64,000 nucleotides of DNA from an uncultured bacterium (GCA_964472395.1 CAYYMM010000002.1:48150-112149); one strand, 5' to 3'; shown: positions 2 through 32,565, counted from the stretch's first letter. Program-made: numbers and translations. The notes: generated by a model not told the origin, from the letters alone.

Positions 2-820
2 GCTTATGATGGCAGCACGCTGACAGCCACGAACAGCGTTGAGATGCTCGATATCGCCAATCTGTCGGCTGGTTGGGTCTCACGATCCGATCTGCCGTTC
101 ATCATCGGCGAGGGTCAGGGCTTTCATGTCCCCTATGGCCCGGGCATCCCGGCCTCGTTCCTGCGGAAAGTCGCGATCGCAGGCGGAGGGCAATGGCCCG
201 ATCAATCCTCCGAAGCCCTGCTCGGAGATCTGCCGACGGATATCTGGAACGCCGGATTCCCGGACCTGAACGAAGCCCGGCGCAATCATGCCGGTGTGTT
301 CATCCCCCTGACGACCGATGCCCCCGACGACGGTCTGCCGGGTTTCTGGGTGTTCGGCGGCAGAACGGTGTCGGATGATCCTCCATACGGCTCACCGGAG
401 TATTATTCCGTTCCGTGGATTCCGACGCCCACACCGTCCGCCGCTCCGACACCAACGCCATCCGTCTGCACGGAACTGGGCTGCCAGATCAAAATGCCTT
501 CCAATCTGTTCAATGCCGGCGATCTCTGTTCCTGCACCCTGACCATCTGCAATCCCTCGTCCACCACCTATCCCCAGGTGCCTGTTTTCGCGATTCTGGA
601 TGTGTACGGCCTGTATTTCTTCGCCCCGGATTTCTCGAACTTCAATCATTATACGCTCGATATCACACCTGGTGAGCAGGAGGTCGAAGTGCTTCCGGAT
701 TTTACCTGGCCGGAAAATGCCGGTGCCGCCTCGGGAATTCTGTGGTATGCTGCCATGACGAACGCAGATATCACGGACCTGTTCGGAGTACTGGGGCAAT
801 TTGAATTCGGCTGGGAATAA
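2..820 (+). CDS. C-terminal part of a secreted/surface protein (5' end outside window) with a Pro/Thr linker and a conserved ~115-aa C-terminal domain
   Basis: Frame is open from position 2 (AYDGSTLTATNSVEM...). PTPTPSAAPTPTPS linker at about 422-463. The C-terminal domain (467-820) matches the C-terminus of the protease at 27133-29187. Confidence 0.85.
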   Translation, partial: AYDGSTLTATNSVEMLDIANLSAGWVSRSDLPFIIGEGQGFHVPYGPGIPASFLRKVAIAGGGQWPDQSSEALLGDLPTDIWNAGFPDLNEARRNHAGVFIPLTTDAPDDGLPGFWVFGGRTVSDDPPYGSPEYYSVPWIPTPTPSAAPTPTPSVCTELGCQIKMPSNLFNAGDLCSCTLTICNPSSTTYPQVPVFAILDVYGLYFFAPDFSNFNHYTLDITPGEQEVEVLPDFTWPENAGAASGILWYAAMTNADITDLFGVLGQFEFGWE

Positions 821-2114
821 CAGAGCAACATCGATCATCGCGTGGGCGCTGTACGATTGGGGGAACTCTGCTTTTGCGACAACGGTCATGGCGGCGTTCT
901 TCCCGATCATGCTCAAACAATACTGGGATGCGGGGTCGGACACGGCCCTGAGCACCGCCCGGCTGGGCGTCACCAACGCTCTTGCCGGCCTTCTGCTCGC
1001 GCTGACAGCGCCGCTGCTCGGAGCGATTGCGGATCATGGCTCCTCCCGAAAACGTTTCCTCGGTTTTTTCGCTTTTTCAGGCGCTGCCGCCACAGCCTCA
1101 CTCGCGTTCATCCCCTCACACCGCTGGGATCTCGCACTCCCCCTCTTCGCCGCCGGCCTCTTCGGCTACTCGGCCGCCAATATCTTCTACGACGCACTCC
1201 TCACCATCGTGTCGCCTCGGGATCGCGTCCATGCCGTGTCCGCGCTGGGATACTCGCTCGGATACCTGGGCGGTGGTCTCCTGTTCGCGCTCAATGTCTG
1301 GATGACGCTGGATCCGTCCCGGTTCGGTCTTGCATCGACGAGTGCCGCCGCACTTACCTCCTTCCTGATCGCCGGAATCTGGTGGGCTGCCTTCACTCTG
1401 CCCTTGCTGATGCTGACGACGGAGCCCCGTCCGACCGGAGTTCACAGTCCTGCCTCGATCCGCATGGGACTTCGCCGTTTACGGGACACATTCCGTGAAA
1501 TCCGGGCGTTGAAACCGATCTGGCTGTTCCTGCTCGCCTACTGGTTCTACATCGATGGTGTGGATACGATCATCAAGATGGCGGTGGATTACGGTGTGGC
1601 GATCGGGCTGGATAGTTCGGGGCTGCTCAGAGCGCTCATCATCACCCAGTTCATCGGGTTTCCGTCGGCTCTTGTGTTCGGGTGGGCCGGTGAGCGCATC
1701 GGGGCGCGCAACGGGATATTCATCGCCCTCGCAGGGTATCTCGCGGTCTCGATCTACGCCGGTTTCATTTCGACCGGTTTCGAGTTTTATCTGCTGGCTG
1801 CGGTGATCGGGCTGATCCAGGGAGGCGTTCAATCTCTGAGTCGCTCGATGTTCAGCCGCATGATCCCGCCGGAGAAATGCGCGGAGTACTTCGGGTTTTA
1901 CAACATGCTGGGCAAATTCGCGGCGGTCGCGGGGCCGGCGATCATCGGTTTGACGGCGTATACTCTAAGCCGTCTGGGGACGTCTCCCGGGATCGCTTCC
2001 CGCCTGAGCATCGTGTCGGTGGCGATCCTGTTCGTGATTGGCGGTTCTATTTTATTCCGCGTGCCGGTTTCACCAGAATCACACGGTGTTCCAGCCGCTC
2101 CGACTCGCTCCTGA
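801..2114 (+). CDS. MFS transporter, UMF1/ATG22-like family
   Basis: About 12 hydrophobic segments, N-terminal WALYDWGNSAF and central YWFYIDGVDT motifs. TTG start; exact start uncertain. Confidence 0.85.
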   Translation: MNSAGNNRATSIIAWALYDWGNSAFATTVMAAFFPIMLKQYWDAGSDTALSTARLGVTNALAGLLLALTAPLLGAIADHGSSRKRFLGFFAFSGAAATASLAFIPSHRWDLALPLFAAGLFGYSAANIFYDALLTIVSPRDRVHAVSALGYSLGYLGGGLLFALNVWMTLDPSRFGLASTSAAALTSFLIAGIWWAAFTLPLLMLTTEPRPTGVHSPASIRMGLRRLRDTFREIRALKPIWLFLLAYWFYIDGVDTIIKMAVDYGVAIGLDSSGLLRALIITQFIGFPSALVFGWAGERIGARNGIFIALAGYLAVSIYAGFISTGFEFYLLAAVIGLIQGGVQSLSRSMFSRMIPPEKCAEYFGFYNMLGKFAAVAGPAIIGLTAYTLSRLGTSPGIASRLSIVSVAILFVIGGSILFRVPVSPESHGVPAAPTRS

Positions 2115-3996
2115 TCCGCCTGATTTCACGATATCCGGCCGGATCGATATCCACGGCCGCCCACCGGACCATTTCATCGTGACGGTACACATGCCCGTTC
2201 ATCCGTGTCCGGATCTGCCAGCTTGCATGTTTGAACCGCGCATCGGCATTCTTCGGTGTCTGGAGGATATCGAGGGTCTCCGGAAGCGTCACCGACACCG
2301 AGACGGTTTCCCGTGCCGTCGAATCCAGCCGCATCGGCAGCATTCGCTCGGGCATCGAGGTCAGCACGGGGATGCGCGCAAACGGCAGCCGGAACACCGG
2401 AATCTCGATGACCGACAGATCGCCCATTTCCGGACAGATCCGGCCTCCTGAAAACGCAATGCGGATCCTGGGAGACTCCGTCATGTCATTCCAATCCGAT
2501 TCGGTTACCGTTCCGATGATCGCTCCGGGAATGCACTGGACCAACTGCCGTTCATAGGCCCGATACCGCTCTTCCGGCGACAGATCCCGGTTCTCCTCCC
2601 GGGCCCAGTATGAAAAATACCCCTCTCCCATCCAGGTGATTTCGCCGGATATCCGGCCGGTTTCATCCAGCACCAGATTCATCTCGAGTTTACTTTGCGA
2701 CGCTTCGGGCGGGAGCACGGGAATCGATTCGATTGCATGCCGGTTCTGACCGATCCGAAGGGCTTTCCGGCCCGCCGAGGCGATAAAGAAACCGAACGGG
2801 AGATTATCCAGGCCGGGATCCAGCCAGTATCGGCGTTTTGCGGTGAGTTCCACGATACATCCCGCAGAATCGAACTGTTCGATTGAAGGCACACTCGGCT
2901 CGATGATGAGCGAATCGCGGTTGAACAGAACCAGTTCCGCTGCGATTCCGGCCGCGCGGTAGAGCGCCATCAGCAGGACCGTTTTATCCCGGGTATCCCC
3001 GAAACGCCGTTCCAGTGTCTGGGCAGGGGGAGTCGGATCATATCCTGCCAATTGCACAGGAATCTCGATCATCCGGATGTTTTCACTCACCCAGTAATAG
3101 ATCGCTGCGGCGCGTTCGATGTCCGTTACGCACCCCGCGGTGATCACACCGAGCAACTCACGGGTGTCGAACGGCGCTTCGACGGCTCGCATAAAGCGGC
3201 TCCGGAGCCACCCTGCGGCGGATGTCCAATCCCGGGCGCATGAATACTGGAGTCTCGGAACCACATTCTGTTCCGGTGCGCTGCCCCATTCGCTCCGGAC
3301 CATCGCCGTGTCCTCGCGACTCCAGGCATACTCGATCACCCGCCCCTTCGAGACGGAGGGGGTTTCGAGATTCCCCGCGATGGCATAGGTGAACGGCACG
3401 GAAGCCGGGATGTGGATCCTGAGATCCTCCCGGAGCACGGGAATGGCATCCTGAAAAATGTGATGCCCGCTCAATGGACGCTCGTCGGCGGGATACGTTG
3501 CCGACATCTTCACCTTGTAGTGGATGATCGTTCCGGGTTCGACGCCGGAAAACGACACGATGCGTTGCCGGATCGCACCGTACACGGCCGCATCCATGAG
3601 CCATGGCGGGATGATCTCATTGTCCGCCCCGTCCATCAGAGGCATCAGGCGTCCGTCCGGCGTCTGGGTTTCCGCCGACAGCAGTTCGACGGTCTCGAAG
3701 CGCTGATCGAACAGCACTTTCAGATCCCCATAGAGATTCTTCCCGTTACCCGTCAGAATTTTCATCCAGACTTCCTGAACCGTCACCCGGCTCCGGTCGT
3801 TCGGAATATCGACGTCGGTGTCTCTCGACAGGATGACCGCATCGGCATCCTCCAGGAGCACCGGATCAACCGGATCCGTTGCACGCAACACCGGCACCGT
3901 TTCGGAAATGACCCGTTCCTGGGCTAGGAGTGGCCACGCAACGACCAGTGCGGCAACCAGCGCGGCAACCATAACGCTCGTTCGGATCGTTCGCAT
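2047..3996 (-). CDS. Secreted DUF3857 + transglutaminase-like protein, catalytic residues apparently lost
   Basis: Signal peptide. SGVEPGTIIHY DUF3857-like motif. GDTRDK and FDSAG occupy the positions of GxCKDK and FNHAI in the neighbouring paralog. Confidence 0.8.
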   Translation of the reverse strand: MRTIRTSVMVAALVAALVVAWPLLAQERVISETVPVLRATDPVDPVLLEDADAVILSRDTDVDIPNDRSRVTVQEVWMKILTGNGKNLYGDLKVLFDQRFETVELLSAETQTPDGRLMPLMDGADNEIIPPWLMDAAVYGAIRQRIVSFSGVEPGTIIHYKVKMSATYPADERPLSGHHIFQDAIPVLREDLRIHIPASVPFTYAIAGNLETPSVSKGRVIEYAWSREDTAMVRSEWGSAPEQNVVPRLQYSCARDWTSAAGWLRSRFMRAVEAPFDTRELLGVITAGCVTDIERAAAIYYWVSENIRMIEIPVQLAGYDPTPPAQTLERRFGDTRDKTVLLMALYRAAGIAAELVLFNRDSLIIEPSVPSIEQFDSAGCIVELTAKRRYWLDPGLDNLPFGFFIASAGRKALRIGQNRHAIESIPVLPPEASQSKLEMNLVLDETGRISGEITWMGEGYFSYWAREENRDLSPEERYRAYERQLVQCIPGAIIGTVTESDWNDMTESPRIRIAFSGGRICPEMGDLSVIEIPVFRLPFARIPVLTSMPERMLPMRLDSTARETVSVSVTLPETLDILQTPKNADARFKHASWQIRTRMNGHVYRHDEMVRWAAVDIDPAGYREIRRIRSESERLEHRVILVKPARGIK

Positions 3997-3999
3997 GAC

Positions 4000-6057
4000 C
4001 TATCTCCCTTTCTTCTGCAGGATAACAAACGCCTTGTCTTCCACCCGCATGTCGGACACGACGGATCGAAACGCCTCGAACTCCTCCGCCAGAACGCGCG
4101 GCGATCGGCACTCGAACGTCTGCTCGAACCGGATCGTCTGGTCGGAATCGTGTGTATGCGTGCGAGTGAACACCAGATTCGCCCGTGACATACTGACCGG
4201 TTTCGGCAGCGACTGCACCGTCATGCCTCGCGGCAGCCGGACCGTTTCGGACACGGTCATTTTCCATGTCGATCCGAGATCCGCCGGCCAGTGCCGTTGG
4301 GATTGCGATGCGCATTCGACGACCCGCTCGAACTGGTCATCCAGGAAATTCCGTGAACTCGGGACCTTGAAAAGATTACTCCCGCCGAGTCGGATCAGGA
4401 AGTCCGGCGCATGGTAGCGCAGAGTGAAGGTGAGGGGAATCGTGAGATCGTCCATGGATTCCGGGGCGACGTCGATGCCATCGAGCACGGCGCCGGGCGA
4501 TACGGACTGCAGCAGCATGTTGAACCACTGGTCGTGCTCGGCTTCAGGAATATAGTACAGTGCGCTCCGGAATGACGAGTCGGCCTGCCCGATCCCTTCG
4601 AACCGGATCGTTCCCGTCAGGTTCCCCTGTGCATCGATTGTGGATTCTGCGGTGATCGTCGCCGCGTTACGGTCGGGCGGCAAGATCGGGATCCGGTCGA
4701 ACGGGTGGCCTTCCTTCGAGATTCTTAAAACACCCGTACCGCCACTCGTGGCAGGAAGCATCTCCTTTTCGAGATCGGTGGTGACATCGAGATACCGGAA
4801 CGAATCGGATCCGGGCAGTTTGACGGAGACGATCGCGTGGTTGAACTGATCCACCGCGGCCTCGCCGAACACCCTCCGTTCCGGATTGTTCAGCGTGTAA
4901 TAGGCATCGATTCCGATGATCCGGAGCATGGCCGTCAGGAGCCCTGCTTTGTCCTTGCAGACACCGGCGTTATTGGCAAACGTCCTCGTGACCGGATCGG
5001 GATTCACGCCGGGCCGATCGCCGTAGGTGACCCCGAGATACCGGACGCTGCGCGTCACGTAGCGGAACAGGGCCGCCATCTGCGCCTCCGGATCCGTGAT
5101 CCCTTCGGTCAACTCGGCGACCTTCGCACGGATCGCGTCGTCCGGCACCAGGAACGGTTCGATCAGAACGGATTCGCGCCGTGAGAACTCCTCCCAGGTT
5201 TCGGTGCTGACCAGAAGCGACGTCCGGACTTCTTCGATATGAACCATCCCGGGTTCCACGCGGATCACCGGAAGATTCCGACCGACCCACATCCAGTCCG
5301 TCCAGGCATCACCCGGTTCGCGTGAAAAGGCGACGCGCCCTTCCGGGTCGTTGACGACTGCCCAATGGAGATTGATCTGAGCCGGCGCGCGCAGCCGACA
5401 GGAAGCCTCGACGATCGGATCCGTGCCGTTGAAGCCCTGGCCCCAATGCAACGCGCCCGGCGATCGCGTACTGATCGCGCAGTTTTCGTAGGTATAGGAG
5501 ATGATCGCACCGGGTTCGAGGCCCGGGAAGTTGATGATCTTGCTCCGCCAGATCGGCTCGAAAATGTTGACATAGGCGTCCTCGGAATTGCTTTCGTCCA
5601 GGATATCCTCCTGAGGAATCGAGGTGATCGTGCCATCCGGTGCGATCACGTAGGCTTCCAGGATCCGGGTGCGGTCGTAGGGCAGATCATAGGAAGCCGA
5701 CACCGTGCCGTATGATTCACAGCCCTTGCGGGTAAGCACCAGAACCGCTTCCTGTTGGATGAGGTGGTAGAAACCGTCCGAATCGAATGCCGTGCGGTCG
5801 CGGACCAGCAGGCGGATCGCGTGTGTATCCGGGCCGGGGCCGGATGCGAGAGCGGTTTGGGCGAGCGCCCGGATCTCGTCCGGCGTTGCGAGGGCGTCGA
5901 GTGGAACCGGGAGCGCTTCGGAGCGTTCGAGGGCGGCGGCTTCGGGACTTCCGGGTTCGATTTTGTCCCAGGGCGGAGGGTCGGCAAGGCTGCCTGCGGG
6001 GAGCAGGGCGGCGAGGAGGATGAGGGTGATCAGCGCAAAGATGACTCGATTGGGCAT
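4000..6057 (-). CDS. Secreted DUF3857 + transglutaminase-like protein with intact Cys-His-Asp triad
   Basis: Start reassigned to the ATG at 6057 (MPNRVIFALITLILL signal peptide). Motifs FPGLEPGAIISY, GVCKDKA, FNHAIV, YLD. Confidence 0.85.
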   Translation of the reverse strand: MPNRVIFALITLILLAALLPAGSLADPPPWDKIEPGSPEAAALERSEALPVPLDALATPDEIRALAQTALASGPGPDTHAIRLLVRDRTAFDSDGFYHLIQQEAVLVLTRKGCESYGTVSASYDLPYDRTRILEAYVIAPDGTITSIPQEDILDESNSEDAYVNIFEPIWRSKIINFPGLEPGAIISYTYENCAISTRSPGALHWGQGFNGTDPIVEASCRLRAPAQINLHWAVVNDPEGRVAFSREPGDAWTDWMWVGRNLPVIRVEPGMVHIEEVRTSLLVSTETWEEFSRRESVLIEPFLVPDDAIRAKVAELTEGITDPEAQMAALFRYVTRSVRYLGVTYGDRPGVNPDPVTRTFANNAGVCKDKAGLLTAMLRIIGIDAYYTLNNPERRVFGEAAVDQFNHAIVSVKLPGSDSFRYLDVTTDLEKEMLPATSGGTGVLRISKEGHPFDRIPILPPDRNAATITAESTIDAQGNLTGTIRFEGIGQADSSFRSALYYIPEAEHDQWFNMLLQSVSPGAVLDGIDVAPESMDDLTIPLTFTLRYHAPDFLIRLGGSNLFKVPSSRNFLDDQFERVVECASQSQRHWPADLGSTWKMTVSETVRLPRGMTVQSLPKPVSMSRANLVFTRTHTHDSDQTIRFEQTFECRSPRVLAEEFEAFRSVVSDMRVEDKAFVILQKKGR

Positions 6058-6330
6058 GACGAGAGTCCTTTCCTTGGGTCCGGACGCAGCATCCGGAGGT
6101 CGAATGAACCGGAGTGTAGAACAAATCGGCGCGTACGGGAAGAGTCCGTAGTGCGGATCAAGGGAGCATGAGCGACTGATCCTTTCCGGTTCCATTCCTG
6201 CCGGAAAATGGTCGGGTAAAAGTGATGGATGGTGAATCGATCGACTGTTGCAGTCTGGATGGAGTCTCACCGTTTTACTTTATGATTGGAGGATCGCGGG
6301 GAATGCAATTACGCTAGATCTCTGCCTCCT

Positions 6331-8118: not shown

Positions 8119-9492
8119 ATGAAACCCTCCTGCCTGCTTATCACAACGCTGCTGCTGCTCGCCGGCCTCCCGCCGGGATCCGCAACGGTCGATCTGAATG
8201 TCAGCGAACATATCCTGCAAAACGGGATGCGCGTCCTGACAGTCGAACGCCATTCCGTCCCGGTAGTCTCGTTCGCGCTGTACTATCGCGTCGGCGCGAT
8301 CGACGATCCGCCGGGGAAAAAAGGCATGGCTCACTACTGCGAACACATGCTGTTCAAATCGACGAAAAATCTGGAAGGCGAATCCTACGCGAAACTCGTC
8401 GGAGCAGTTGCCGGAGGCCACAGCAACGCCAACACGACAACAGACCGCACCTGCTACCACGCGACGATCCCCCCGGATCGCCTGGAACTGATCATTCGTC
8501 TCGAAGCGGAACGCATGGCGAACCTCGAACCGACTCGCGAGGAAGCCGCAACGGAACTCGAAGTCGTCAAGGAAGAACTCAGACAGGGCTACATGGATGA
8601 CCCCATGGGACGGTTGCGACGACTGTTCCACGAAAATCTCTTTGCAATCCACCCCTACGGCGTGCTCACGATCGGCCTGCTGGACGATCTTAATACGATC
8701 TCATACGAAGACCTGATGGCTTTTTATCACCGATTCTATACTCCGGCCAACGCCATCGCGGTCATCGTCGGCGATTTCGAGACGACCGATGCGATCCCCC
8801 TGATGGAGCGCTTTTTCGGATCGATTCCAGCGGGGGAGCGGAACCCGAGACGCTATCCGGCGGAACCGCAGCAGACTCAGGAACGACGAACGGTTTTGGA
8901 ATTGCCTGTGCAACAGAGCGTCTACTACGCGGGTTACCAGGCAGTCTCCGGATCACACCCCGATGCGCTCGCCATCGAACTGCTGACGGTCGCCCTGTCA
9001 CGCGGCGGGTCAAGCCCGCTGGGACAACTCTCACAGGGACCCGACCCGGTCGCGATGTACGCCGCGGCCTACTTCCGGGGCCTTCTCGAACCGTACCCGA
9101 TCATCGTCACCGGAGCGCCTCTCCCGGGCGTGTCGACCGATATCCTGGAAACCCGCATCGACTCGGAACTCGAATCGATCGCCCGGAACGGATTGACGGA
9201 AGCGCAATTCCGGACGGCGCGCGCGCAACTGGAAGCAGCCGAAATCTATGAACTTCAGTCCTCTCTCGGCGTCGCCATCGGTCTGGGAGAAGCGGAGATG
9301 ACAGGCGCATGGCGGGATGCCATCACGCGTGCCGATCGACTCGCGACGGTGACCCGTGAGGATGTCTGCCGTGTCGCAAAAGAGTATCTCAGGCGCGACC
9401 GTCGCACCGTCGCCATCCTGAAACCTCAGCCGCCGGAATCGTCAGACATACCGGAATCCGGCGCATCGTCACCCGAGGGAGACGTCCGATGA
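8119..9492 (+). CDS. M16 (pitrilysin-like) zinc peptidase, catalytic subunit, exported
   Basis: Signal peptide. Inverted zinc motif AHYCEH, NANTTTDRTCY, E...V.EE. Confidence 0.92.
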   Translation: MKPSCLLITTLLLLAGLPPGSATVDLNVSEHILQNGMRVLTVERHSVPVVSFALYYRVGAIDDPPGKKGMAHYCEHMLFKSTKNLEGESYAKLVGAVAGGHSNANTTTDRTCYHATIPPDRLELIIRLEAERMANLEPTREEAATELEVVKEELRQGYMDDPMGRLRRLFHENLFAIHPYGVLTIGLLDDLNTISYEDLMAFYHRFYTPANAIAVIVGDFETTDAIPLMERFFGSIPAGERNPRRYPAEPQQTQERRTVLELPVQQSVYYAGYQAVSGSHPDALAIELLTVALSRGGSSPLGQLSQGPDPVAMYAAAYFRGLLEPYPIIVTGAPLPGVSTDILETRIDSELESIARNGLTEAQFRTARAQLEAAEIYELQSSLGVAIGLGEAEMTGAWRDAITRADRLATVTREDVCRVAKEYLRRDRRTVAILKPQPPESSDIPESGASSPEGDVR

Positions 9493-10922
9493 TCCGCCGA
9501 ACCGTCACGCTCACATTCATCACATTGCTCCTGTCGGCCTGCATCCACCGTCAACCCTCCCCGACCGACTCGATCAGGAACTATGTCGCAACGGCTTCCT
9601 GGGATCGGTCGGCGTCCTTTGATTTCCAGGAACCGGTTCAGATCACACTGTCGAACGGGTTGAGGGTATTTCTGATCGAACGCGAGGACATTCCGATGGT
9701 GTTTTTCCGGACGCAGGTCCGCGGAGGTTCCATCTATGATCCCCCCGGGAAGGAAGGCCTGGCCTATCTGACCGGCTGGGTCCTGACGGAAGGCGCCGAA
9801 GGAATCCCGGATGAAACGATCGACGCGATGATGGATTCTCGCGGAGCGATTCTGACCTCGCAGGCCTTCAGCGAATCCTGCATCGCCACGCTCACCTGCC
9901 TGAAGAAGGATCTCGGCGATGTCTTTCCGATGTACGCCGGTATCGTGTCGAAGCCCTCACTGGAAGAAACCAAGATCCGGGAATCGATCGGCTACCTGAA
10001 AGGTGATCTCCTCCGCCTGAAGAACGACCTGGGCGAACTCTGCTTCCGCCGCTTCCGCGCCGACGTTTTCGGCGACCACCCCTACTCGAAACCCTACAAG
10101 GGAACGATCGCCGGACTCGATTCCATTGACCGCCGGGATGTTGTCGCGTTTTACGACCGCTATTACCAGCCCTCGGATGCGGTCCTGATCGCAGTGGGGG
10201 CGATCACGGAAACGGAACTCAGAACGCTGTGCGAGAAACACCTGTCCAACTGGACATCGCGCACTGCGGACCCGCTCCCGGAGATCGCTCCGCCCGAACC
10301 CCTTCATGGGATCACCATCCGGATCATCGATCAGGAAGCCGTACAGGCCCAGATCGCACTGGGCCACATCGGCATCGATCGCCGCAATCCTGACCAGTTC
10401 GCCCTGGATGTGCTGAACGAAATTCTCGGCGGAGGCAGTCTCGCGTCGCGCCTGGGCAACGAAGTCCGGGTCAACCGCGGCCTGACATACGGGATCTACA
10501 GTTTTTTTGCCCGGCGTGAGTTTACAGGCGAATTCGCGGTGTCGACCTTCACCAAGGTCGAGTCGGTCGGGCAGGTGGTCGAGGTGATTCTGAACGAATT
10601 GAGAAAAATCCGAGATACAGCGGTTTCGGAGGAGGAACTTCGAGACGCGAAGCAGGGGCTGATCGGGCAGTTTCCGTTGCGTTTCGAGGAGTACGAGGGG
10701 CTGGCCGAGGAAATCAGCTATCTGTATTACAACAATCTGCCGATCGAATACGTCAAAGAGTATTCACAGCGCGTCGCGGCGATCTCCGCCGATGACCTGC
10801 AGCAGGCCGCCCGCACCTATATCGATCCCGACAACCTGACCATCACGGTGGTCGGCCCGGCGGATCGCATCGAACCTCAACTCCGATCGCTCGGCGTCGT
10901 CGAACGCGTCCCGGCGATCTGA
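9489..10922 (+). CDS. M16 peptidase non-catalytic subunit, probable lipoprotein
   Basis: LLSA-C lipobox. No HXXEH. LGGGSLASRL...R..RGLTY motif. ATGA overlap with the upstream gene. Confidence 0.88.
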   Translation: MIRRTVTLTFITLLLSACIHRQPSPTDSIRNYVATASWDRSASFDFQEPVQITLSNGLRVFLIEREDIPMVFFRTQVRGGSIYDPPGKEGLAYLTGWVLTEGAEGIPDETIDAMMDSRGAILTSQAFSESCIATLTCLKKDLGDVFPMYAGIVSKPSLEETKIRESIGYLKGDLLRLKNDLGELCFRRFRADVFGDHPYSKPYKGTIAGLDSIDRRDVVAFYDRYYQPSDAVLIAVGAITETELRTLCEKHLSNWTSRTADPLPEIAPPEPLHGITIRIIDQEAVQAQIALGHIGIDRRNPDQFALDVLNEILGGGSLASRLGNEVRVNRGLTYGIYSFFARREFTGEFAVSTFTKVESVGQVVEVILNELRKIRDTAVSEEELRDAKQGLIGQFPLRFEEYEGLAEEISYLYYNNLPIEYVKEYSQRVAAISADDLQQAARTYIDPDNLTITVVGPADRIEPQLRSLGVVERVPAI

Positions 10923-10940
10923 TCGGAAAGGACCCCTCCC

Positions 10941-12461
10941 ATGACGGACTTCCGGAAACCATCCGATGAAAAAGAACTCGTCGCCATGCTCGATTCGATC
11001 GACGCCCGCCTCGAAGAGATCGGCGCCCGTTCGAGTCTCGCGCACTTCAACCGCCTCACCGGTGCACCTCACGAAGATCTCGAAGCGCTGAATCAGGAAT
11101 CCGCCGCAATCATGCTCAATGCGGATTATCGCGACACGATCGAACACTGGCGCTCCCGATCACTCTCCCCGCGTCTCATGCGCAGACTCGACCTATTCCA
11201 TCGGGCATTCCGGAGCGCTCGGATCGACAACAATCCTGGCCTGTTTGCGCTGGCAAACCGGATTGAAGAAAAGATCATCCGCTTCCAGCCGGAACTCGAC
11301 GGTGTGAAGTTGTCCCGCAGCGATCTGGGCAAGGTGCTGGAAACCGAACCGGATCGAGCCCGGCGAGAGAGAGCCTATCGCGCCAACAAGGCACTCGGCG
11401 AACTGATCGAGCAAGATGTTCTTGAACTGTTCGCATATCGAAACGATCTGGCGAAAGAACTCGGTGCCGCCACCTACGTCGATCTCGGTCTGGAACTCGC
11501 TGACCTGAAGGAATCCGAACTCGATATGCTGTTCGACCAGGTCCGGCTCGCCACCGAGGATCTCTGGAATGACAGCCTGTCCGATATCGCGCATCAACTC
11601 GGCATCGCATCCCCCGCTCCTTGGGATTTCAGCTACTACATCCACTCGGTGCTCCCCTCCCCTCCGATCTCGAAATTCCCCAAAAGCGGCATCATCCCGA
11701 CATTCCGGAAATGGCTCGCGCGCTGCGGCGGCGATTTGGGCAAACTCCCGATCGAGGTCATCGAACAGGACATCCCGTATGGTGGTTTGTGCGTCCCGAT
11801 CCGAATGGGCAAGGACATCCGGATTCTGACAAATCCCCGCGATGGCCTGTCCTGGTACAATATTCTCTTCCACGAATTCGGCCACGGCATCCACGCCAGC
11901 CTGATCGATACGTCCTCACATCTCGTCGCGGGAGGCGATCCGTCCTTCTTCTGGGAGGGGATCGCAGGGGTATTCCAGTGGATCACCGACATGCCGGAAT
12001 TCCTGAAGGACGAGTTCGGGATGACGGATCGTGAGATCGCCGATGTGGTGCGGCAGAACCGGGTCCGGAACATCCTGGGTTACCGGAACATCGCCGTCGC
12101 CTGCCGTCTCGAATGGGCCATCTACCGCCGCACCCCCGATCCCCGGAAGTATCTGGAGAATCTGCTGCGTGACACCATTGGCATCGAGCCGCCGGAACGA
12201 CCCTCCTGGGCCGGCGATACCCTGTACACCACGCACCCGCTTTACCATCAGAATTACCTGCTGATGGATGTCATGGCGACCCAGACGATCGACGCGGTCC
12301 GGCGCTCCTTCGGCACGTATCCGGCCCCGGGGATGTTCGACTTCGTCGTCGATCATTATGTTCGAGACGGTGGATGGAAACCCTGGCGGGACAAGATTGC
12401 CGCGGCAACCGGCTCGCCGCTGACCGCTCAGGCGCTCGGCCACTACCTGACGGATCATTGA
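10941..12461 (+). CDS. Gluzincin metallopeptidase (M3/M2-like), cytoplasmic
   Basis: HEFGH zinc motif followed by FWEGIA third-ligand region. No signal peptide. Confidence 0.8.
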   Translation: MTDFRKPSDEKELVAMLDSIDARLEEIGARSSLAHFNRLTGAPHEDLEALNQESAAIMLNADYRDTIEHWRSRSLSPRLMRRLDLFHRAFRSARIDNNPGLFALANRIEEKIIRFQPELDGVKLSRSDLGKVLETEPDRARRERAYRANKALGELIEQDVLELFAYRNDLAKELGAATYVDLGLELADLKESELDMLFDQVRLATEDLWNDSLSDIAHQLGIASPAPWDFSYYIHSVLPSPPISKFPKSGIIPTFRKWLARCGGDLGKLPIEVIEQDIPYGGLCVPIRMGKDIRILTNPRDGLSWYNILFHEFGHGIHASLIDTSSHLVAGGDPSFFWEGIAGVFQWITDMPEFLKDEFGMTDREIADVVRQNRVRNILGYRNIAVACRLEWAIYRRTPDPRKYLENLLRDTIGIEPPERPSWAGDTLYTTHPLYHQNYLLMDVMATQTIDAVRRSFGTYPAPGMFDFVVDHYVRDGGWKPWRDKIAAATGSPLTAQALGHYLTDH

Positions 12462-12469
12462 TCGCATCG

Positions 12470-15349
12470 ATGAAGGCCGCGCGGATCCTGTCTGTTTGCC
12501 TGTCGGTTCTTCTGATCCCTGTTGTGTCGCATGCCTTCGGGGCAATCAACGTTCGCCTCCTGACCGAGCCGATCTCGGCGGCTGCTGGCATCGACGTCAC
12601 GCTCGAAACCGCCTTTCAGAAACCGATGCGGAATGCGACGGGGCAGACGGGGCAGGCCTGGTTCTTTGAGCTGCCGCCGGGCGATTACACCGTTTCGTTG
12701 ACTCCGGAAGAAGGCCGTCCGCGGCTCCGCATCCCGGTGTCGCTCGGCATCAACGCCGTCATCATCGTCGATGTGTTGTGCAGTGCTTGCGACGATGCCG
12801 ATCGGGTCTGCATCCGCCGTGAAAAACTGCCGGATTCGCCGGCGGTCGTGACGGCATCCGAAATAGACTGGCTGCCGGAAGGCTCGAACCTCACCGGCCT
12901 GTTCCGCTCGGTACCCTGGTCGTTCGGCGAGCAAACCCATCATGTGCTCGGGGGCTCCCCGAACGATCTCGGATTGATCATCGACGGCATGGACCTGAGC
13001 GATCCGGCGGGTCGGGTATGGATTCCGGGATACTCGGTGCAGTCGTTCGATCAGATGCTCCTTCACGGGGTGGCTCTGCCGATCGGCGACACCCCGGATC
13101 GCACGTCGATTCTCGAGATCACCCCTCGTCAGCCCGCGCAGCGTCTCCATCTGTTCGCCCGGTTCAATCAATCTCACGGAGAACTCCTCAACCTGCCAGG
13201 TTCCACACGCCTGATTCAGGGCGGAGATGGGATTGAGTCGGAAGCCGCGCTGGCCGGACCGGTCTGGTCGGATCGGATCTGGTTCATGGGAAGTTTCCGC
13301 GGTCTGGCCCGGGCGTTGCCCGACCCGGAACAGGTCTCGCCGCAGGACAACTGGAGGCAGCATGAATCGGCTGTCACCGGGAACGCCCTGGCGGGTCAGC
13401 TTCTGTTTCGCCTGTTCGATGAACAGCGCGTGAGGATCATGTATGGTCTCGAGGGATATCGGTATGATGACATCGTGCCGACGGACACCAGTTCGCCGGA
13501 TGCCGCGACGGATTTCCTTGTCGAGCGGCCTTTCGGTCTGATCCGCTGGTCCTGGCGCATTTCCCCCCGCTGGAGTCTCGGGGCAATGGCCGGACAGCTG
13601 CTCGACCGGGACGAATCGAGCCCCCGGAACCGGTCACGATCGGATCCGACTGATGCGTCATTTCGGGATATGCGGACCGATCGCTACTACAACAATGGAG
13701 CGAACTGGACAGAAGACGAGCGCAGGCGAATGATCGCGTCCTTCCGGATCCATTACTCCAACGATGACCTCGCGGGCGTCCACCGACTGACTCTCGGAGC
13801 AGGCTGGCAGCGGGACCGGCAGCGGATCGAAGAGACTGCCGCGGGAGGGGCCTGGTATGAGTTTACGGAAACGGACGCGCTTCGTGAGCGCTTGTCGGAC
13901 GAATCCGCAGTTCGCTTGAGAGGCGATTTCTTCCATTTTCATCTCGAAGACAAATGGTATCTTCTCGATCATGTGCTCCTGGAAGTCGGCGTCCAGTACA
14001 ACCGATCGATCTATTATGACAGTCGAGGGGATTCCGCATATCCAGGATGGGAATGGGGTGCATTCAAGGCCGGGGATTATCTGGACGATGACGGTGGGTA
14101 CAAGTGGACGAGTCAGATGAAGTTCGACACGATGTGGGCACCGAGAATCGGCTTCAAATGGGATATCTTCAAGGATAACTGCGCCGTGATCACGGCATCC
14201 TTCAGCCGATACTACGATCCGCTCGATCTGACGTTCCCCCGCGATGTCGAGGCGCGGGCGGGCGAACGCAGGATCCGTGAACGCTATACCGGTCCCGGGT
14301 GGACCGATGCGGACCAGAACGGCATTCCCGATGAACCGCACTTCTTCGCAAATGAAAACTGGAGTCCGGCATCGGGAGATGCTGAACCGGCGACCCTGCT
14401 CATCGATACCGAACTTGCGCCGCCGAGCACCGATGAAGTCGCCGTCGAATATCGTCATGACTGGAAAAACGGCATTCGGCTCTCGACCGGAATGATCGTC
14501 CGGGAAGCCAGTCAGATGATCGAGGATGTCGGGTTGTTCGGCGATGCGGACGGCAACATCGTCTGGACATATCGGGGGGCAGTTGACGCCGAGACCAACG
14601 AAATCAAAGCCGGAAAGCCGTATGATCCGTGCGTGGGCGATTATACCCGACGATACTCCTTCGTGACCAATCTGGAAGGTTCGCAGCGCCGATATTACGG
14701 GTTTCACATTCAGGCCGCCTACGAAGGCAGGAGGGTCAAGCTCCTGGGTGGGTATGTGCTGTCCAACACCATCGGAAAGGTGGTCGGAGTCGATCTCGAA
14801 ACCGGCGATCCAGCCTACCTGACATCGGCATTCGATTCGGTCACGTCATCCCGGAACCGCTGGGGAGATCTTCCCTGGTCGGCCCATCACCACCTGTCCG
14901 CCTCCGCATGGATCCTTGCGTTCGATCACCGCTGGTTCGAATGCCGTCTCGGGATCGCGGGTTACTGGAGGAGCGGATTTGCATCGACAGCATGGGAACC
15001 ACCTCCTCCGACATTCGATCCCGGGAACGCCTCCAACGATTTCGACGATCCCGACACATGGACCGGCACGCCGCCCGATGCTTCGAATTCCGAGATCTGG
15101 TATCCGGACGGTCGGGGCAATCGGAGGCTGGACCCGATCGTCAATGTCGATCTGTCCGTCCGCAACAGTTTTGAATTAGGTCCATCGAGCCGGCTGGGCC
15201 GACTGACTCTCCAGCTCGATGTGATGAATGCCACGAACAACAGGACGTATCGAGAAACCATCGAGGGTGGAGAATGGGCCTCCGACGAGGCTGATCGTCG
15301 CGAGGCATCCTCCCGCTGGTACCGCCTCGGCGTCAGCTATTCGTTCTGA
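12470..15349 (+). CDS. Divergent Oar-like TonB-dependent outer-membrane receptor
   Basis: Signal peptide from ATG 12470. C-terminal RLGVSYSF beta-signal. Shares many blocks with 29305-32319 and 32566-35547 (MKFD.M.APR.G..WD.F, IEDVGLF.D..GNIVWTY.G, GDLPWS..H). Confidence 0.8.
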   Translation: MKAARILSVCLSVLLIPVVSHAFGAINVRLLTEPISAAAGIDVTLETAFQKPMRNATGQTGQAWFFELPPGDYTVSLTPEEGRPRLRIPVSLGINAVIIVDVLCSACDDADRVCIRREKLPDSPAVVTASEIDWLPEGSNLTGLFRSVPWSFGEQTHHVLGGSPNDLGLIIDGMDLSDPAGRVWIPGYSVQSFDQMLLHGVALPIGDTPDRTSILEITPRQPAQRLHLFARFNQSHGELLNLPGSTRLIQGGDGIESEAALAGPVWSDRIWFMGSFRGLARALPDPEQVSPQDNWRQHESAVTGNALAGQLLFRLFDEQRVRIMYGLEGYRYDDIVPTDTSSPDAATDFLVERPFGLIRWSWRISPRWSLGAMAGQLLDRDESSPRNRSRSDPTDASFRDMRTDRYYNNGANWTEDERRRMIASFRIHYSNDDLAGVHRLTLGAGWQRDRQRIEETAAGGAWYEFTETDALRERLSDESAVRLRGDFFHFHLEDKWYLLDHVLLEVGVQYNRSIYYDSRGDSAYPGWEWGAFKAGDYLDDDGGYKWTSQMKFDTMWAPRIGFKWDIFKDNCAVITASFSRYYDPLDLTFPRDVEARAGERRIRERYTGPGWTDADQNGIPDEPHFFANENWSPASGDAEPATLLIDTELAPPSTDEVAVEYRHDWKNGIRLSTGMIVREASQMIEDVGLFGDADGNIVWTYRGAVDAETNEIKAGKPYDPCVGDYTRRYSFVTNLEGSQRRYYGFHIQAAYEGRRVKLLGGYVLSNTIGKVVGVDLETGDPAYLTSAFDSVTSSRNRWGDLPWSAHHHLSASAWILAFDHRWFECRLGIAGYWRSGFASTAWEPPPPTFDPGNASNDFDDPDTWTGTPPDASNSEIWYPDGRGNRRLDPIVNVDLSVRNSFELGPSSRLGRLTLQLDVMNATNNRTYRETIEGGEWASDEADRREASSRWYRLGVSYSF

Positions 15350-26411: not shown

Positions 26412-26490
26412 CGATGGCGGTATATCGCAGCGATTCTCAAGTTGAACCGTTCGGCTCGAATTCCGTAAAATACAGGTGGAGGGGAAGAGG

Positions 26491-27114
26491 ATGAAGCGCT
26501 ATCGGAACCTCGTTATCTCACTCGGGCTCGTGTGCCTCGTCGCTCCCGTATTCGGAGCGGTCGATCTGATCGAACAATCGATGTTGCCGGTCCGGGATGC
26601 CCTGGACGAGTTACTCATCAAAACCCAGCATGTCTTCGTACAGAGAGACGATTCCGTGGATGCCTTTCATATTGCCGGCACGGGCGCGCTCTGGGTCGGC
26701 CGGATCTCGATTACCGGCTCTCAAAGTCTGTCGATCTCCATCAATGACTGGAACAAATGGTTTGAAAATTCGGGTCGTCGCAAGGATGAAAATGCTGCTC
26801 GGGACAACAACCAGGATCTGAATAAAATCAAGCGTCTTCTGGAGATGGATGCCGAACGCCTCAACCAGATGGAGCAGCGCGTTACGATGTTCAAGAAGGA
26901 GCTGATCCAGTTCGTGTCCCAGCACTGGGTCGCGTTGAAGAATCTGCCGGCCAATGAATCCCTTTTCCTGGTATTCAAGGTGGCGGATGAAGAATTCGCA
27001 TCGAAGTTCGGGACTTCGACCCTGATGCTTCAGGTCTCGATGAGCGACCTGATCGGTCACACCCCCGAGGCCGAGCGGTCGATTCCCGACAGTGCCTTCA
27101 GATTCAATCTCTGA
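26491..27114 (+). CDS. Secreted hypothetical protein
   Basis: Signal peptide MKRYRNLVISLGLVCLVAPVFG, purine-rich RBS, typical codon usage. Confidence 0.75.
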   Translation: MKRYRNLVISLGLVCLVAPVFGAVDLIEQSMLPVRDALDELLIKTQHVFVQRDDSVDAFHIAGTGALWVGRISITGSQSLSISINDWNKWFENSGRRKDENAARDNNQDLNKIKRLLEMDAERLNQMEQRVTMFKKELIQFVSQHWVALKNLPANESLFLVFKVADEEFASKFGTSTLMLQVSMSDLIGHTPEAERSIPDSAFRFNL

Positions 27115-27132: not shown

Positions 27133-29187
27133 TCAGCGTCCCCCCCATCCCCATTCGATCATGTCATAATCCAGAGCCTCCGTGTTGGAGGGGTTCAACG
27201 CCGCACCCCAGAACCGGATACCCGACGCTGTTCCGTCCACTGCGGGCCACTCGAATTCCAACAGGGTTGCCTCCTGGTGTTCATACATGCCCAGTTCACC
27301 TGGTGCCCACTCCGGAGCGTCTGTCCAGGACGGCCAGAAGAAGTAGGAATTGTAGACATCGAGGATCACCCATTGATTGAACGGCACGGAACCGGTCCGG
27401 TGATTGCGGACATCGAGCGCCAGGCTGAAGCAGTCACCGGTCGCAAGCAGGGTGTCCGGAAGCACCATCCGGACGTCGACGGGTTCTGTCAAACGGCTCT
27501 CAAACCCGGAATCGACTCCCGTGAACAGCATGAAATCATCGATGTTCCAGCCGCCGAACTGCAAGCCTTCATCGGATGTCAGCGCGAACGTGACCTGAAC
27601 ATTGGCAGGATCTGCGGCAATAGCATCCGTGATGTCATACACACACGGAACCCAATCGGTATCGATCAGATGTCCTTCAAATGGATTCCGCCAGATTTCC
27701 GTTCCGTTGACTCGAATCGTCATCTGATCGTATCTCGATTCTTCGACGGTTGCATAGCGCTGGAACATCAGCAGGACCCGGTCATAGGGACTGCAATCGA
27801 TGATGGGGGACACCAGATAATTGGACAGTTCATTGGAGTAATTGCCGGTTTTCACCAGATTGTTTCCCCACATTTTCGTTCCGGAATACGGGGTCATCGG
27901 ATCGTGTTGCGGATCGCCGTCCGCCGGGAACGATCCGCGCATCCAGTCGTCTTTCTTCTGTGTGAATCCGTGTGTCCAGCCGTCATCCGAAAGCCCCTCG
28001 AAATCATTGAAGTAGATCACGAATCGCGGACCGGCGAATGTCGTGATCGTTTCCGACGTCTGAACATCGCCGCATGCATACGTGAGAACCAGTTCGATGG
28101 GTGATCCGGGCACGAGCCCCGGGTTAGTTGCAAGACTGAAGACACCGGCCAGGTCTGTTTCGGTTTTTGCAGGAATGGCCGGCACGGACACCTGATTCGA
28201 CGTGATCTGGATGTTGGGATTGGAGCATGCGAGCTGCAGGGTGCCCGCTACGGATGCTTCGCGTCCCTTGTTCCGGATGCGCACCTGCAAGGAGGTGTTT
28301 TCGGAGGGGCTGATGCAGCCGTCCTGATCCGGGATCGACCACTGCGACACCATCAGACGCACCGGAGGGATGGCCTGAACCGTCGCGATCGCGGCCTGTT
28401 CACCGATATGCATGTCACCGTACTGGATGTGAAAATACCCGTTATCGCCCCAGTCTGCACCCCAGGAATTCTTGACGATCCAGGATCCGGTCGGCGCACA
28501 GACTTCGTCATCCCAGCCGACAATGGTGACACCGTGGTTGACCTGTGTGGTGCTCGTGTCGTGATAACATCCGCTGGTATAATTCTTGAGATTGTCATTC
28601 GCGCCGATCACCGTAGCAACTGGTCCGGATTCCATCAGCGCGGTTTTAATCACATCGATATCGGTGTTGATGTATGAATAATCGGCAACCATGTAGTACG
28701 GTTCGTGGTCGTCCGCCCGGCAGTTGCCGTTTTCGGCTTCATAGGGATAATCGGCTTCGAGTCGCAGGCCTTCGTATATGAGATACCCGAAAGCGCTATC
28801 GTAGGATCCGCCGTTGCAGCCGTAGGATCCGGGAGTGCAGTCAACGAGCTGCTGTTCCGAGACATCGACTTCGATTCCTTCCGTGAGCAGTATCTGGGAT
28901 TCGATGACAGCCGTTGCGGTGAACGCCCAGCAGCTTCCGCACTGAGCCTGATCCTTGACCGACGTCACGCCGTTCTGTTCCCGCCAGTCGAAGCGGACGG
29001 GAAGGTCGCGCTGGCCCTTCGGAAATGGCCGTTCCGGTTCAATGTAATCGGGATCCGGACGATAGGTCAGGATGCTCTGAAATTCATCGTCCGTCAGGCG
29101 CGCAACCCAGTTCTCTGCGTGCAGCGGAGCCATCGATCCGATCACCAGCACGATTCCGCACATCATCCATCTGATCCCTGTTAACAT
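27133..29187 (-). CDS. Secreted papain-family (C1) cysteine protease with accessory beta domains and the conserved C-terminal domain
   Basis: FDWR, QAQCGSCWAF, NHGVTIVGW, WIVKNSWG. AAGGAG RBS before ATG 29187. Confidence 0.92.
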   Translation of the reverse strand: MLTGIRWMMCGIVLVIGSMAPLHAENWVARLTDDEFQSILTYRPDPDYIEPERPFPKGQRDLPVRFDWREQNGVTSVKDQAQCGSCWAFTATAVIESQILLTEGIEVDVSEQQLVDCTPGSYGCNGGSYDSAFGYLIYEGLRLEADYPYEAENGNCRADDHEPYYMVADYSYINTDIDVIKTALMESGPVATVIGANDNLKNYTSGCYHDTSTTQVNHGVTIVGWDDEVCAPTGSWIVKNSWGADWGDNGYFHIQYGDMHIGEQAAIATVQAIPPVRLMVSQWSIPDQDGCISPSENTSLQVRIRNKGREASVAGTLQLACSNPNIQITSNQVSVPAIPAKTETDLAGVFSLATNPGLVPGSPIELVLTYACGDVQTSETITTFAGPRFVIYFNDFEGLSDDGWTHGFTQKKDDWMRGSFPADGDPQHDPMTPYSGTKMWGNNLVKTGNYSNELSNYLVSPIIDCSPYDRVLLMFQRYATVEESRYDQMTIRVNGTEIWRNPFEGHLIDTDWVPCVYDITDAIAADPANVQVTFALTSDEGLQFGGWNIDDFMLFTGVDSGFESRLTEPVDVRMVLPDTLLATGDCFSLALDVRNHRTGSVPFNQWVILDVYNSYFFWPSWTDAPEWAPGELGMYEHQEATLLEFEWPAVDGTASGIRFWGAALNPSNTEALDYDMIEWGWGGR

Positions 29188-29251
29188 GCGATTCTCCTTT
29201 CGAGGCACACCATCCGGAGAATGTATAGCACAGAGGATGCCAGTCGAGCAG

Positions 29252-32300: not shown

Positions 32301-32319
32301 TCCACTCTTTTCGCACCAT
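29305..32319 (-). CDS. Oar-like TonB-dependent receptor with N-terminal carboxypeptidase-regulatory-like domain
   Basis: Signal peptide, PELPPGVYEL, plug motifs DGVDTTDP and GGFAAEYG...GGIVNAVTRSG, C-terminal RIGLKYAF. Confidence 0.9.
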   Translation of the reverse strand: MVRKEWIWIAGMIILTLSTGVSYAGLTGVIAGKVINTNGDPMPGVTVTVSGPALQGERVDVTSQTGTFRMPELPPGVYELKGDLYGLQPYLQTDIRVSVNTTATVNFTMQMQKFTETAIVIAEAQVVDAKSATVKTTIERDVTERLPGSDDLFSAFAMTGGTVDLGTGNVNVKGGADNDNLCLFDGVDTTDPVTGTFGANLNADAIAEVEVQTGGFAAEYGRARGGIVNAVTRSGGNDFHGILRLRYRASDWEDSWKHPQAAISYDQMEPTVTLEGPIMRDKLWFMATYQLTTYDISVNTLSRYGGDPDLDYDADLNRDRFFHLPYIKLTYQATQSHKLVANYSGENAEIKGTNQTPEARTQVVPDCYETQTQGGPFYSLEWTWLYSPTLFFVSRVGLSNSFLDVKPQSLNTTDPRKAHFYDTYYDQYYNNGNVWVEDDRDRSQLSFVGNYFVEDLWGAHEFKSGFELHHSQRDSYVNRAGGANYTVTQIPMGDPANPDYYVGTEATREILTNVGTTTESSRYLGVFVQDTWSIFDNLTVNAGVRFETATYYNNDDESSVPGWKWGDFRADQIINPDGSYKRNGEMKFDDMLAPRLGINWDIFGNGKSSVSAFWGRFYNPFDLSLPGMFQPPDIDNSLTRNQRYTGPQWEDRDRDGVPDQDFFFDDANWMTTSEDEAGDISNLIDPNIEAEYNDEYTIGFEQVIRKGLSVNVNYTHRETNDMLEDVGLFVDDEGNIVWTYLGGVRDDFSGLDPNKKYDPRDPDENATGDYAKHIYYVTNAKGNTREYDGVELNIIARQDLWDLQASYTLSKAEGAVIEQQEDSAGGTSQFSGQFDTYGTTFNLYGELPWSPRHFLKVAGSVHYPVTEWYEVSLGVDAFLQSGFHYSKRTKPAAAFDPDNPSNDFADPSTWTGKPPYKDSFWSFPYGRGTETLPSFYNVDISFQNTFSFGKFGSATLQLDVDNITDYQGINSEIETYNPRRPELFGQADGWGAPRTYRIGLKYAF

Positions 32320-32492
32320 ACCCAACCTCCTTCCAGAAAGTCACTTTGTTTCGGACCGTGTGCAGATCGCACGATTCTGACCCCTTTTTGGATTGGTTTT
32401 CGGTCCGAATACACCATGTCCAATCCTCCTGCTTCCGGTTACGAAACAGAAGGTGGAAAAGTTTGATACGATGGAGCGGGAGATAGTAAAAG

Positions 32493-32543
32493 GTGCGCCC
32501 TGCCGGGCGCACAAAAAAAAGGGCCTCCCGATGGGAGGCCCTT
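32493..32543 (-). terminator. Rho-independent terminator plus a second adjacent hairpin
   Basis: AAGGGCCTCCC-GAT-GGGAGGCCCTT stem with an 8-A tract (T8 on minus), directly followed by GTGCGCCC-TGCC-GGGCGCAC. Confidence 0.85.
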
Positions 32544-32565
32544 AAAGAATCAGACGATGAGTGAA

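Follow-up and report, generated by a model that had tools for sequence, protein, structure and literature searches.

The window analyzed here is a 64,000-nucleotide stretch of DNA from an uncultured bacterium (GCA_964472395.1 CAYYMM010000002.1:48150-112149). Two of its genes, an open reading frame that enters from the left edge (ORF1) and a papain-family protease gene on the opposite strand, encode proteins with homologous C-terminal domains. Their features, and those of the genes upstream of the protease, are as follows.

2..820, plus strand: ORF1, 272 residues visible, 5'-open at the window start, stop codon at 818-820
2..421, plus strand: cargo part of ORF1, by homology the C-terminal end of a Kelch-type beta-propeller protein
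422..463 (aa 141-154), plus strand: Pro/Thr linker of ORF1, PTPTPSAAPTPTPS
464..817 (aa 155-272, conserved upstream Cys included), plus strand: C-terminal domain copy 1, supported by HMM, AlphaFold and Cys positions
27133..29208, minus strand: papain-family protease gene, 691 residues
27136..27489 (protease aa 574-691), minus strand: C-terminal domain copy 2, followed by the stop codon at 27133-27135; supported by BLASTP, HMM and AlphaFold
27490..28410 (aa 267-573), minus strand: middle region of the protease, no curated domain
28411..29004 (aa 69-266), minus strand: papain-family cysteine peptidase domain (PF00112 Peptidase_C1, E 4.1e-60)
29116..29187, minus strand: probable Sec signal peptide, MLTGIRWMMCGIVLVIGSMAPLHA, if the start is Met8; a heuristic reading rather than the call of a trained predictor
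29305-32325 and 32566-35547, minus strand: two TonB-dependent receptors (Pfam), both upstream of the protease gene and co-directional with it
35647-36666, minus strand: CarboxypepD_reg+TPR protein (Pfam), likewise upstream of and co-directional with the protease gene

The domain at the C-termini of ORF1 and the protease is 113-118 residues long, typically ~115. Pairwise BLASTP of the two tails found 37/117 identities (32%, E 6e-13). For a comparison that was not circular, we trained a profile HMM on 44 family members from outside the window, omitting the two window sequences. This independent model recovered ORF1 (1.9e-55) and the protease (4.4e-25), and the next best six-frame ORF of the whole window reached E ~1. 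The HMM and BLASTP scores thus place the similarity far above chance and indicate exactly two copies within the window. An earlier inspection of the DNA by itself (the sequence-only reading) had proposed that the C-termini of these two proteins are homologous, that the proteins are otherwise unrelated, and that a Pro/Thr linker precedes the first copy. All three proposals held, with Peptidase_C1 in the protease and a Kelch propeller in ORF1 as judged from its cluster representative, P0003 (697 aa, with a signal-peptide-like N-terminus and Pfam matches to Kelch_1, Kelch_6 and Kelch_4). A full-length ORF1 ortholog lies in another locus (L001, 1156-3336).

The two copies represent different forms of the domain. 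Copy 1 is of the typical Cys-containing form, with VCTELGC (Cys156 of ORF1, nt 467), GDLCSCTLTICNP, ILDVYGLYFFAP, FTWP, WYAAMT and a terminal FEFGWE. Copy 2 is divergent: it lacks a Pro/Thr (PT) stalk and three of the four conserved Cys (one is kept), reads YFFWPSW where the family has YFFAPxF, ends in IEWGWGGR, and sits in a divergent, long-branched clade of the domain tree.

Some of the DNA around ORF1 is also conserved. An MFS/Atg22-like transporter gene with a TTG start (801-2114, plus strand) overlaps the end of ORF1 by 20 nt, and the pairing is kept beside the ORF1 ortholog in L001 (transporter at 3320-4630), suggesting that the tagged Kelch protein and the transporter are co-transcribed. 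Nearby on the minus strand (2047-6270) is a tandem pair of DUF3857 plus transglutaminase-core proteins. This family adjoins tagged genes at an orthologous position in L001 (4569-6335) and also in L064/L065 (3742-6195), where the tagged gene is a different and divergent one.

The domain could not be named as a known family, in agreement with the sequence-only reading. Pfam and NCBIfam, carbohydrate-binding and Ig-like models included, gave no match at E<=1 over the domain region of either window protein, and only scattered single chance matches at E<=10 across 46 members. A profile search of all PDB sequences with the domain returned nothing at E<=10. The genome announcement of the phylum CSSED10-310, to which the domain maps (see below), makes no mention of it (PMC8248873), and a wider literature search yielded no description either.

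Structure prediction by AlphaFold2 gave an eight-strand beta-sandwich for copy 1 (pLDDT 97.4, pTM 0.86) and the same eight-strand layout for copy 2 (pLDDT 95.3, pTM 0.85), confident models in which both window copies are predicted to be Ig/FnIII-like sandwiches. Foldseek comparison with the PDB placed the nearest folds of both copies at TM 0.5-0.64 and E 2.6e-4 or worse. Nearest among the solved structures (TM 0.57-0.64, E 2.6e-4 to 2e-3) were V. cholerae RbmA, a CARDB domain (3idu) and the C-terminal FnIII-like domain of GH3 beta-glucosidases; factor XIII barrel domains, RhoGDI, ML-type lipid binders, a porphyran-binding CBM and the Wzt carbohydrate-binding domain were further neighbors. The likeness to CARDB is one of fold alone (TM 0.5-0.6 to 3idu), with 0 of 46 members matching PF07705 at E<=10. 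Structural neighbors of so generic a kind carry no information on what the domain might bind.

A profile search of 1.84 billion representative proteins defined the family as 1,981 50%-identity clusters at E<=1e-3, or 1,037 at E<=1e-10. Among the best 152 representatives of the 1,981 clusters, the domain ended 0-5 aa from the C-terminus in 147, and in all 77 copies read directly from genome DNA (65 loci) it ended 0-7 codons before the stop. Each protein carried one copy, the only exception being P0050 with its extra partial matches. The sequence-only reading had expected the domain to be C-terminal throughout and had counted internal copies against a sorting or anchoring signal. Such copies do occur at low frequency, in three of the 152 representatives (P0079, aa 445-559 of 862; P0118, 274-385 of 691; P0141, 210-325 of 452), in each of which a second PT linker leads on to one more domain. 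The region after the domain in P0079 reads as FGE-sulfatase-like, a Pfam family that matched once in a set including this protein. The three internal copies may be true fusions, or artefacts of assembly or frameshift. Short members that might have passed for 'tag-only' proteins were fragments starting at contig edges or internal Met residues.

Upstream of the domain, the 30 preceding residues are on average Pro/Thr-rich family-wide (22% Thr, 21% Pro). A PT stalk was found in 115 of 148 members (78%), with a median length of 46 aa and a maximum of 200 aa; the other 22%, the window protease included, have none. At the opposite end of the protein, 109 of 126 full-length members (~87%) begin with a signal-peptide-like sequence, as called by a hydrophobicity heuristic and not a trained predictor, which bears out the expectation that the domain rides on signal-peptide proteins. 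Only 6 of the 126 have a lipobox-like pattern, and most tagged proteins would therefore lack a lipid anchor of their own.

The domain itself is strongly acidic (D+E 12.4% vs K+R 1.9%) and aromatic (17%), and its mean Trp content of 3.6% agrees with the earlier description of it as Trp-rich. Four Cys are conserved in >83% of members: one stands five residues ahead of the 'LG' at the start of the domain, and the other three belong to GDxCxCxVxxCNP. Invariant or near-invariant positions include MP, GD, the N of CNP, the LD of ILDVYG, FAP, FxWP, the T of AMT, and FGW, the last forming the C-terminal end with 0-4 additional residues (F 97%, W 94%).

What the domain is attached to varies widely, as had been anticipated: at least 36 Pfam families were matched at E<=1e-5 among 77 full-length members. 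Among them were Beta_helix (11), Chlam_PMP (9), NosD (5), Kelch, FG-GAP, Peptidase_S8 (3), Peptidase_M1, FGE-sulfatase, LTD and Metallophos. One tagged member is a Peptidase_C25 (gingipain/PorU-family) protein with its propeptide. No glycoside hydrolase was present among the 25 most frequent cargo families listed. In public records, tagged proteins are called 'hypothetical protein' or are named for their cargo ('right-handed parallel beta-helix repeat-containing protein', 'DUF6923').

We determined the distribution of the domain by scanning one genome for each of 185,579 species with the core peptide P[VL]F[VA]ILDVY. The 65 matching loci came from only five CSSED10-310 metagenome-assembled genomes (MAGs), four from Zodletone spring and one from soda-lake sediment, and from four MAGs without a phylum label; since the pattern is a single peptide taken from an 8-sequence alignment, it is biased towards the typical form, and divergent copies in other phyla could escape it. 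This distribution supports the earlier proposal of a lineage-specific domain. In the domain tree, copies from the unlabeled MAGs interleave with those from CSSED10-310, which fits, without proving, that labeled and unlabeled MAGs are one lineage. A close relative of the window organism is MAG CALFER01, whose domain copies are 90-91% identical. The window organism is present in activated-sludge, wastewater and bioreactor metagenomes; a query for RNA data as evidence of expression yielded just two runs, their library type unspecified. CSSED10-310 has been described as Gram-negative and sister to Acidobacteriota (PMC8248873). Signs of an outer-membrane envelope were seen here as well: the window encodes TonB-dependent receptors and a member of the heptosyltransferase family, and a syntenic locus has PagL.

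Copies are dense within these genomes. The loci fetched from MAG Zod_Metabat.419 hold at least 24, and as that genome comprises 3.12 Mb and 2,515 genes (PMC8248873), at least 1% of its genes carry the tag by one search pattern. The 21-kb locus around P0002 has four copies. In L066 (21.6 kb of a 230-kb contig), four tagged genes occupy 21 kb; each is of the divergent 'FFWP' subtype, and among their products are a BNR-like repeat protein of 548 aa and a Reg_prop-like protein of 937 aa. On a tree of 78 copies, MAG labels required 39 changes, against a minimum of 9 and a shuffled mean of 49.5, indicating that most paralogs are older than the split of these genomes. A few recent duplications aside, there appears to have been little genome-specific homogenization. 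Concerted evolution within a genome, the expectation for a plug that must fit its own socket, was rejected on the same tree, where copies of different MAGs interleave.

Clustering of the genes in the 65 neighborhoods (~0.5 Mb) and the window yielded no recurrent secretion or envelope gene beside tagged genes. The recurrent neighbors were peptidases M14 and M28, DUF3857/transglutaminase proteins, and radical-SAM pairs whose recurrence is accounted for by orthologous synteny. Components of the type IX secretion system (T9SS; SprA/Sov, PorV, PorU, GldK-N) did not appear in ten Pfam-scanned neighbor ORFs, a sample too small to establish absence.

One gene in these neighborhoods ends differently. 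Directly upstream of a beta-sandwich-tagged gene in L016, the gene at 2-328 (plus strand) has a PT linker followed by IPATGPVGLG, a hydrophobic membrane helix and RFRRNR, a tripartite tail in the style of exosortase or sortase substrates. That a PT stalk can end instead in motif, helix and basic tail suggests a general 'cargo, stalk, anchor' design in this lineage. PEP-CTERM, LPXTG, GlyGly-CTERM and IPTL-CTERM are, like the tag, endings that varied surface proteins share at the C-terminus, and a Pro/Thr-rich spacer often precedes them. Whereas PEP-CTERM, LPXTG and IPTL-CTERM signals consist of ~25-35 aa of motif, helix and basic tail, the tag is a globular domain of ~115 aa, and the tripartite layout is absent from it: 0 of 152 representatives had a hydrophobic 15-mer in the last 35 residues.

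The tagged protease in the window is itself part of a conserved arrangement. Its ortholog P0001 is 91% identical, with the N-terminus MVKEARWILCGLVLFVGAVAPLHA. The middle region (aa 267-573) has no Pfam match and no PDB sequence match; in NCBIfam, aa 293-493 gave a weak partial match to NF038112 (E 8.8e-07, far below the cutoff) that covers the non-catalytic part of this model of a myxosortase-dependent M36 peptidase. The two upstream TonB-dependent receptors are paralogs, each with an N-terminal CarboxypepD_reg domain, and the receptor-protease gene order recurs in a related assembly (L067/L068), with PagL nearby. A single operon of receptors and protease was not supported, as strong terminator-like hairpins lie between the genes (32543-32519 and 29283-29260); we therefore treat the genes as a conserved cluster and not a proven operon. 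The region looks like a peptide-utilization locus, in which a surface-held protease beside peptide-importing receptors would make functional sense.

Two further observations concern other genes of the window. Convergent with the protease (26476-27114, plus strand) is a gene for a 212-aa protein without a Pfam match that has a signal peptide and, in its center, a charged segment resembling a coiled coil. Homologs lie no farther than 3 kb from unrelated tagged genes, in L016 (5425-6117) and L057 (3445-4257), and L067-L069 have a 207-aa gene without a Pfam match at the same position beside the protease; the association may be due to chance or may reflect a link to the tag. Elsewhere in the window (8119-15349, plus strand) is a second proteolysis cluster, which combines two M16 (insulinase-type) peptidases and one M3-like peptidase with an outer-membrane beta-barrel protein of 991 aa, itself a paralog of the two receptors at 29305-35547.

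The terminal position, single copy, cargo independence, signal-peptide-like N-termini, density within genomes and lineage restriction of the domain all point to an address tag rather than a substrate-binding module. From this architecture we infer a function in export, anchoring or docking, and further infer that tagged proteins are retained at the cell surface through a single common partner. Our first-ranked reading is accordingly tentative, plausible and yet short of probable: the domain would be a module of CSSED10-310 that, whatever the cargo, stays on the protein and addresses or tethers it to the cell surface. Tagged proteins would be exported by Sec through the N-terminal signal peptide, and the ~115-residue beta-sandwich would fold outside the cytoplasm, probably stabilized in most members by disulfides among the four conserved Cys. 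The acidic, aromatic-rich domain would then bind one common envelope partner, either a surface glycan (LPS or capsule) or a surface protein, so that the cargo, whether protease, propeller, beta-helix adhesin or other, would be held at the surface on a flexible Pro/Thr stalk. For the C1 protease of the window, the outcome would be peptide production beside the two adjacent TonB-dependent receptors. We ranked a tether first because of the frequent long PT stalks, the general lack of a lipid anchor of the proteins' own and the alternative stalk ending in L016, and also counted in its favor the fold neighbors from adhesion and matrix modules (RbmA, CARDB, the GH3 FnIII-like domain). Counted against it were the absence of a recurrent envelope gene from the 65 neighborhoods and the 22% of members without a PT stalk.

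Strict terminality is explained equally well by a secretion signal, which also counts against a tether. The second-ranked reading is such a signal, acting at the outer membrane in the manner of the C-terminal domains (CTDs) of T9SS cargo: a translocon or shuttle would recognize the folded domain in the periplasm, the cargo would cross the outer membrane, and a peptidase would remove the domain, the cargo perhaps becoming covalently attached to a surface glycolipid. Like the type A CTD of Bacteroidota (Por_Secre_tail), the tag is a folded beta-sandwich at the extreme C-terminus, present once on Sec-exported proteins, independent of cargo and repeated dozens of times per genome, and its terminal FGW motif is highly conserved. 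Proteins exported by T9SS include beta-helix and PMP adhesins, S8, C25 and M1 peptidases, and FG-GAP and Kelch propellers, a spectrum that tagged cargo recalls down to the one C25 peptidase. The two nevertheless have no detectable sequence relationship: PF18962 and TIGR04183 matched neither the window proteins at E<=1 nor any of 46 members at E<=10, and no other sorting-domain model matched these members. Both models of the window copies are beta-sandwiches; among the top 50 Foldseek PDB matches listed for each there was no T9SS CTD structure. Unlike the type A CTD, the tag is longer (113-118 aa, eight strands), strongly acidic and endowed with four conserved Cys, and it usually follows a long PT stalk, which would be unusual ahead of a cleaved signal; a further point against is the internal copy in 3 of 152 members. 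T9SS is known from the FCB group. The lineage of the tag, a phylum reported as sister to Acidobacteriota, lies outside that group (PMC8248873). On balance we consider a T9SS-like signal unlikely, if a serious competitor of the tether. A related proposal, which we find slightly less likely still, is an export-and-attachment pathway at the outer membrane, as yet undescribed and with an origin separate from type IX, for which the domain would serve as cargo signal. It would have its own translocon and processing enzyme, and the tag-bearing C25-family peptidase and lineage-specific outer-membrane barrels would be the obvious candidates for its components.

The remaining readings assign the domain a partner away from the envelope proper or within a scaffold. 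As a ligand-binding module of the CBM or adhesion type, ranked third, it would attach its cargo to a substrate, floc matrix or particle outside the cell and not to the cell's own envelope. The acidic, aromatic-rich composition would suit this role, as would fold neighbors such as RbmA (a biofilm matrix protein), CARDB, the porphyran-binding CBM and the Wzt domain, the origin of the organism in sludge and wastewater flocs, and the rare internal copies. A PT linker leading to a terminal binding module is, moreover, the classic layout of secreted polysaccharide hydrolases, and the tag shares it. Binding modules, however, usually occur at varied positions and in tandem, and CARDB/FnIII-like modules are neither confined to the C-terminus nor phylum-specific, whereas the tag is terminal in 97-100% of copies with one per protein, and has no sequence-level match to them or to any CBM or Ig-like Pfam model among 46 members. 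Its cargo is mostly proteases, propellers and adhesin-like repeats, with no glycoside hydrolase among the 25 families listed, and a module for a common environmental polymer would hardly be expected to be confined to one phylum; we regard this role as decidedly unlikely. Fourth-ranked, and very unlikely in our judgment, is a dockerin-like plug that inserts into repeated sockets of a lineage-specific scaffold and so assembles enzymes into a surface complex. The tag resembles the type I dockerin of cellulosomal enzymes in being terminal, single-copy, placed behind a Pro/Thr linker and present on many secreted enzymes, with dozens of copies per genome, and old paralogs keep 40-65% identity despite unrelated cargo. 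A type I dockerin, by contrast, is a ~70-aa calcium-binding helical duplicate, while both domain models are all-beta with eight strands and PF00404 gave no Pfam match; no cohesin-like partner or repeated candidate socket protein was seen in ~0.5 Mb of neighborhoods, and the 39 label changes on the domain tree do not indicate genome-specific co-evolution of copies.

Common C-terminal tags address whole sets of secreted bacterial proteins, and to our knowledge each tag so far (T9SS CTD, PEP-CTERM, LPXTG, dockerin) has led to dedicated machinery. The domain described here comprises ~2,000 sequence clusters and marks at least 1% of genes in some genomes, yet has no curated model. With such a model, surface and secreted proteins could be annotated throughout a phylum that occurs in activated sludge, wastewater, and soda-lake and sulfidic-spring sediments, and phylogenetic profiling would have a starting point in the search for the partner or pathway. 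Should that partner be a new outer-membrane route, the tag would lead to a new secretion system; should it instead be a glycan or scaffold, the tag would represent a new principle of surface display and a possible anchoring tag.
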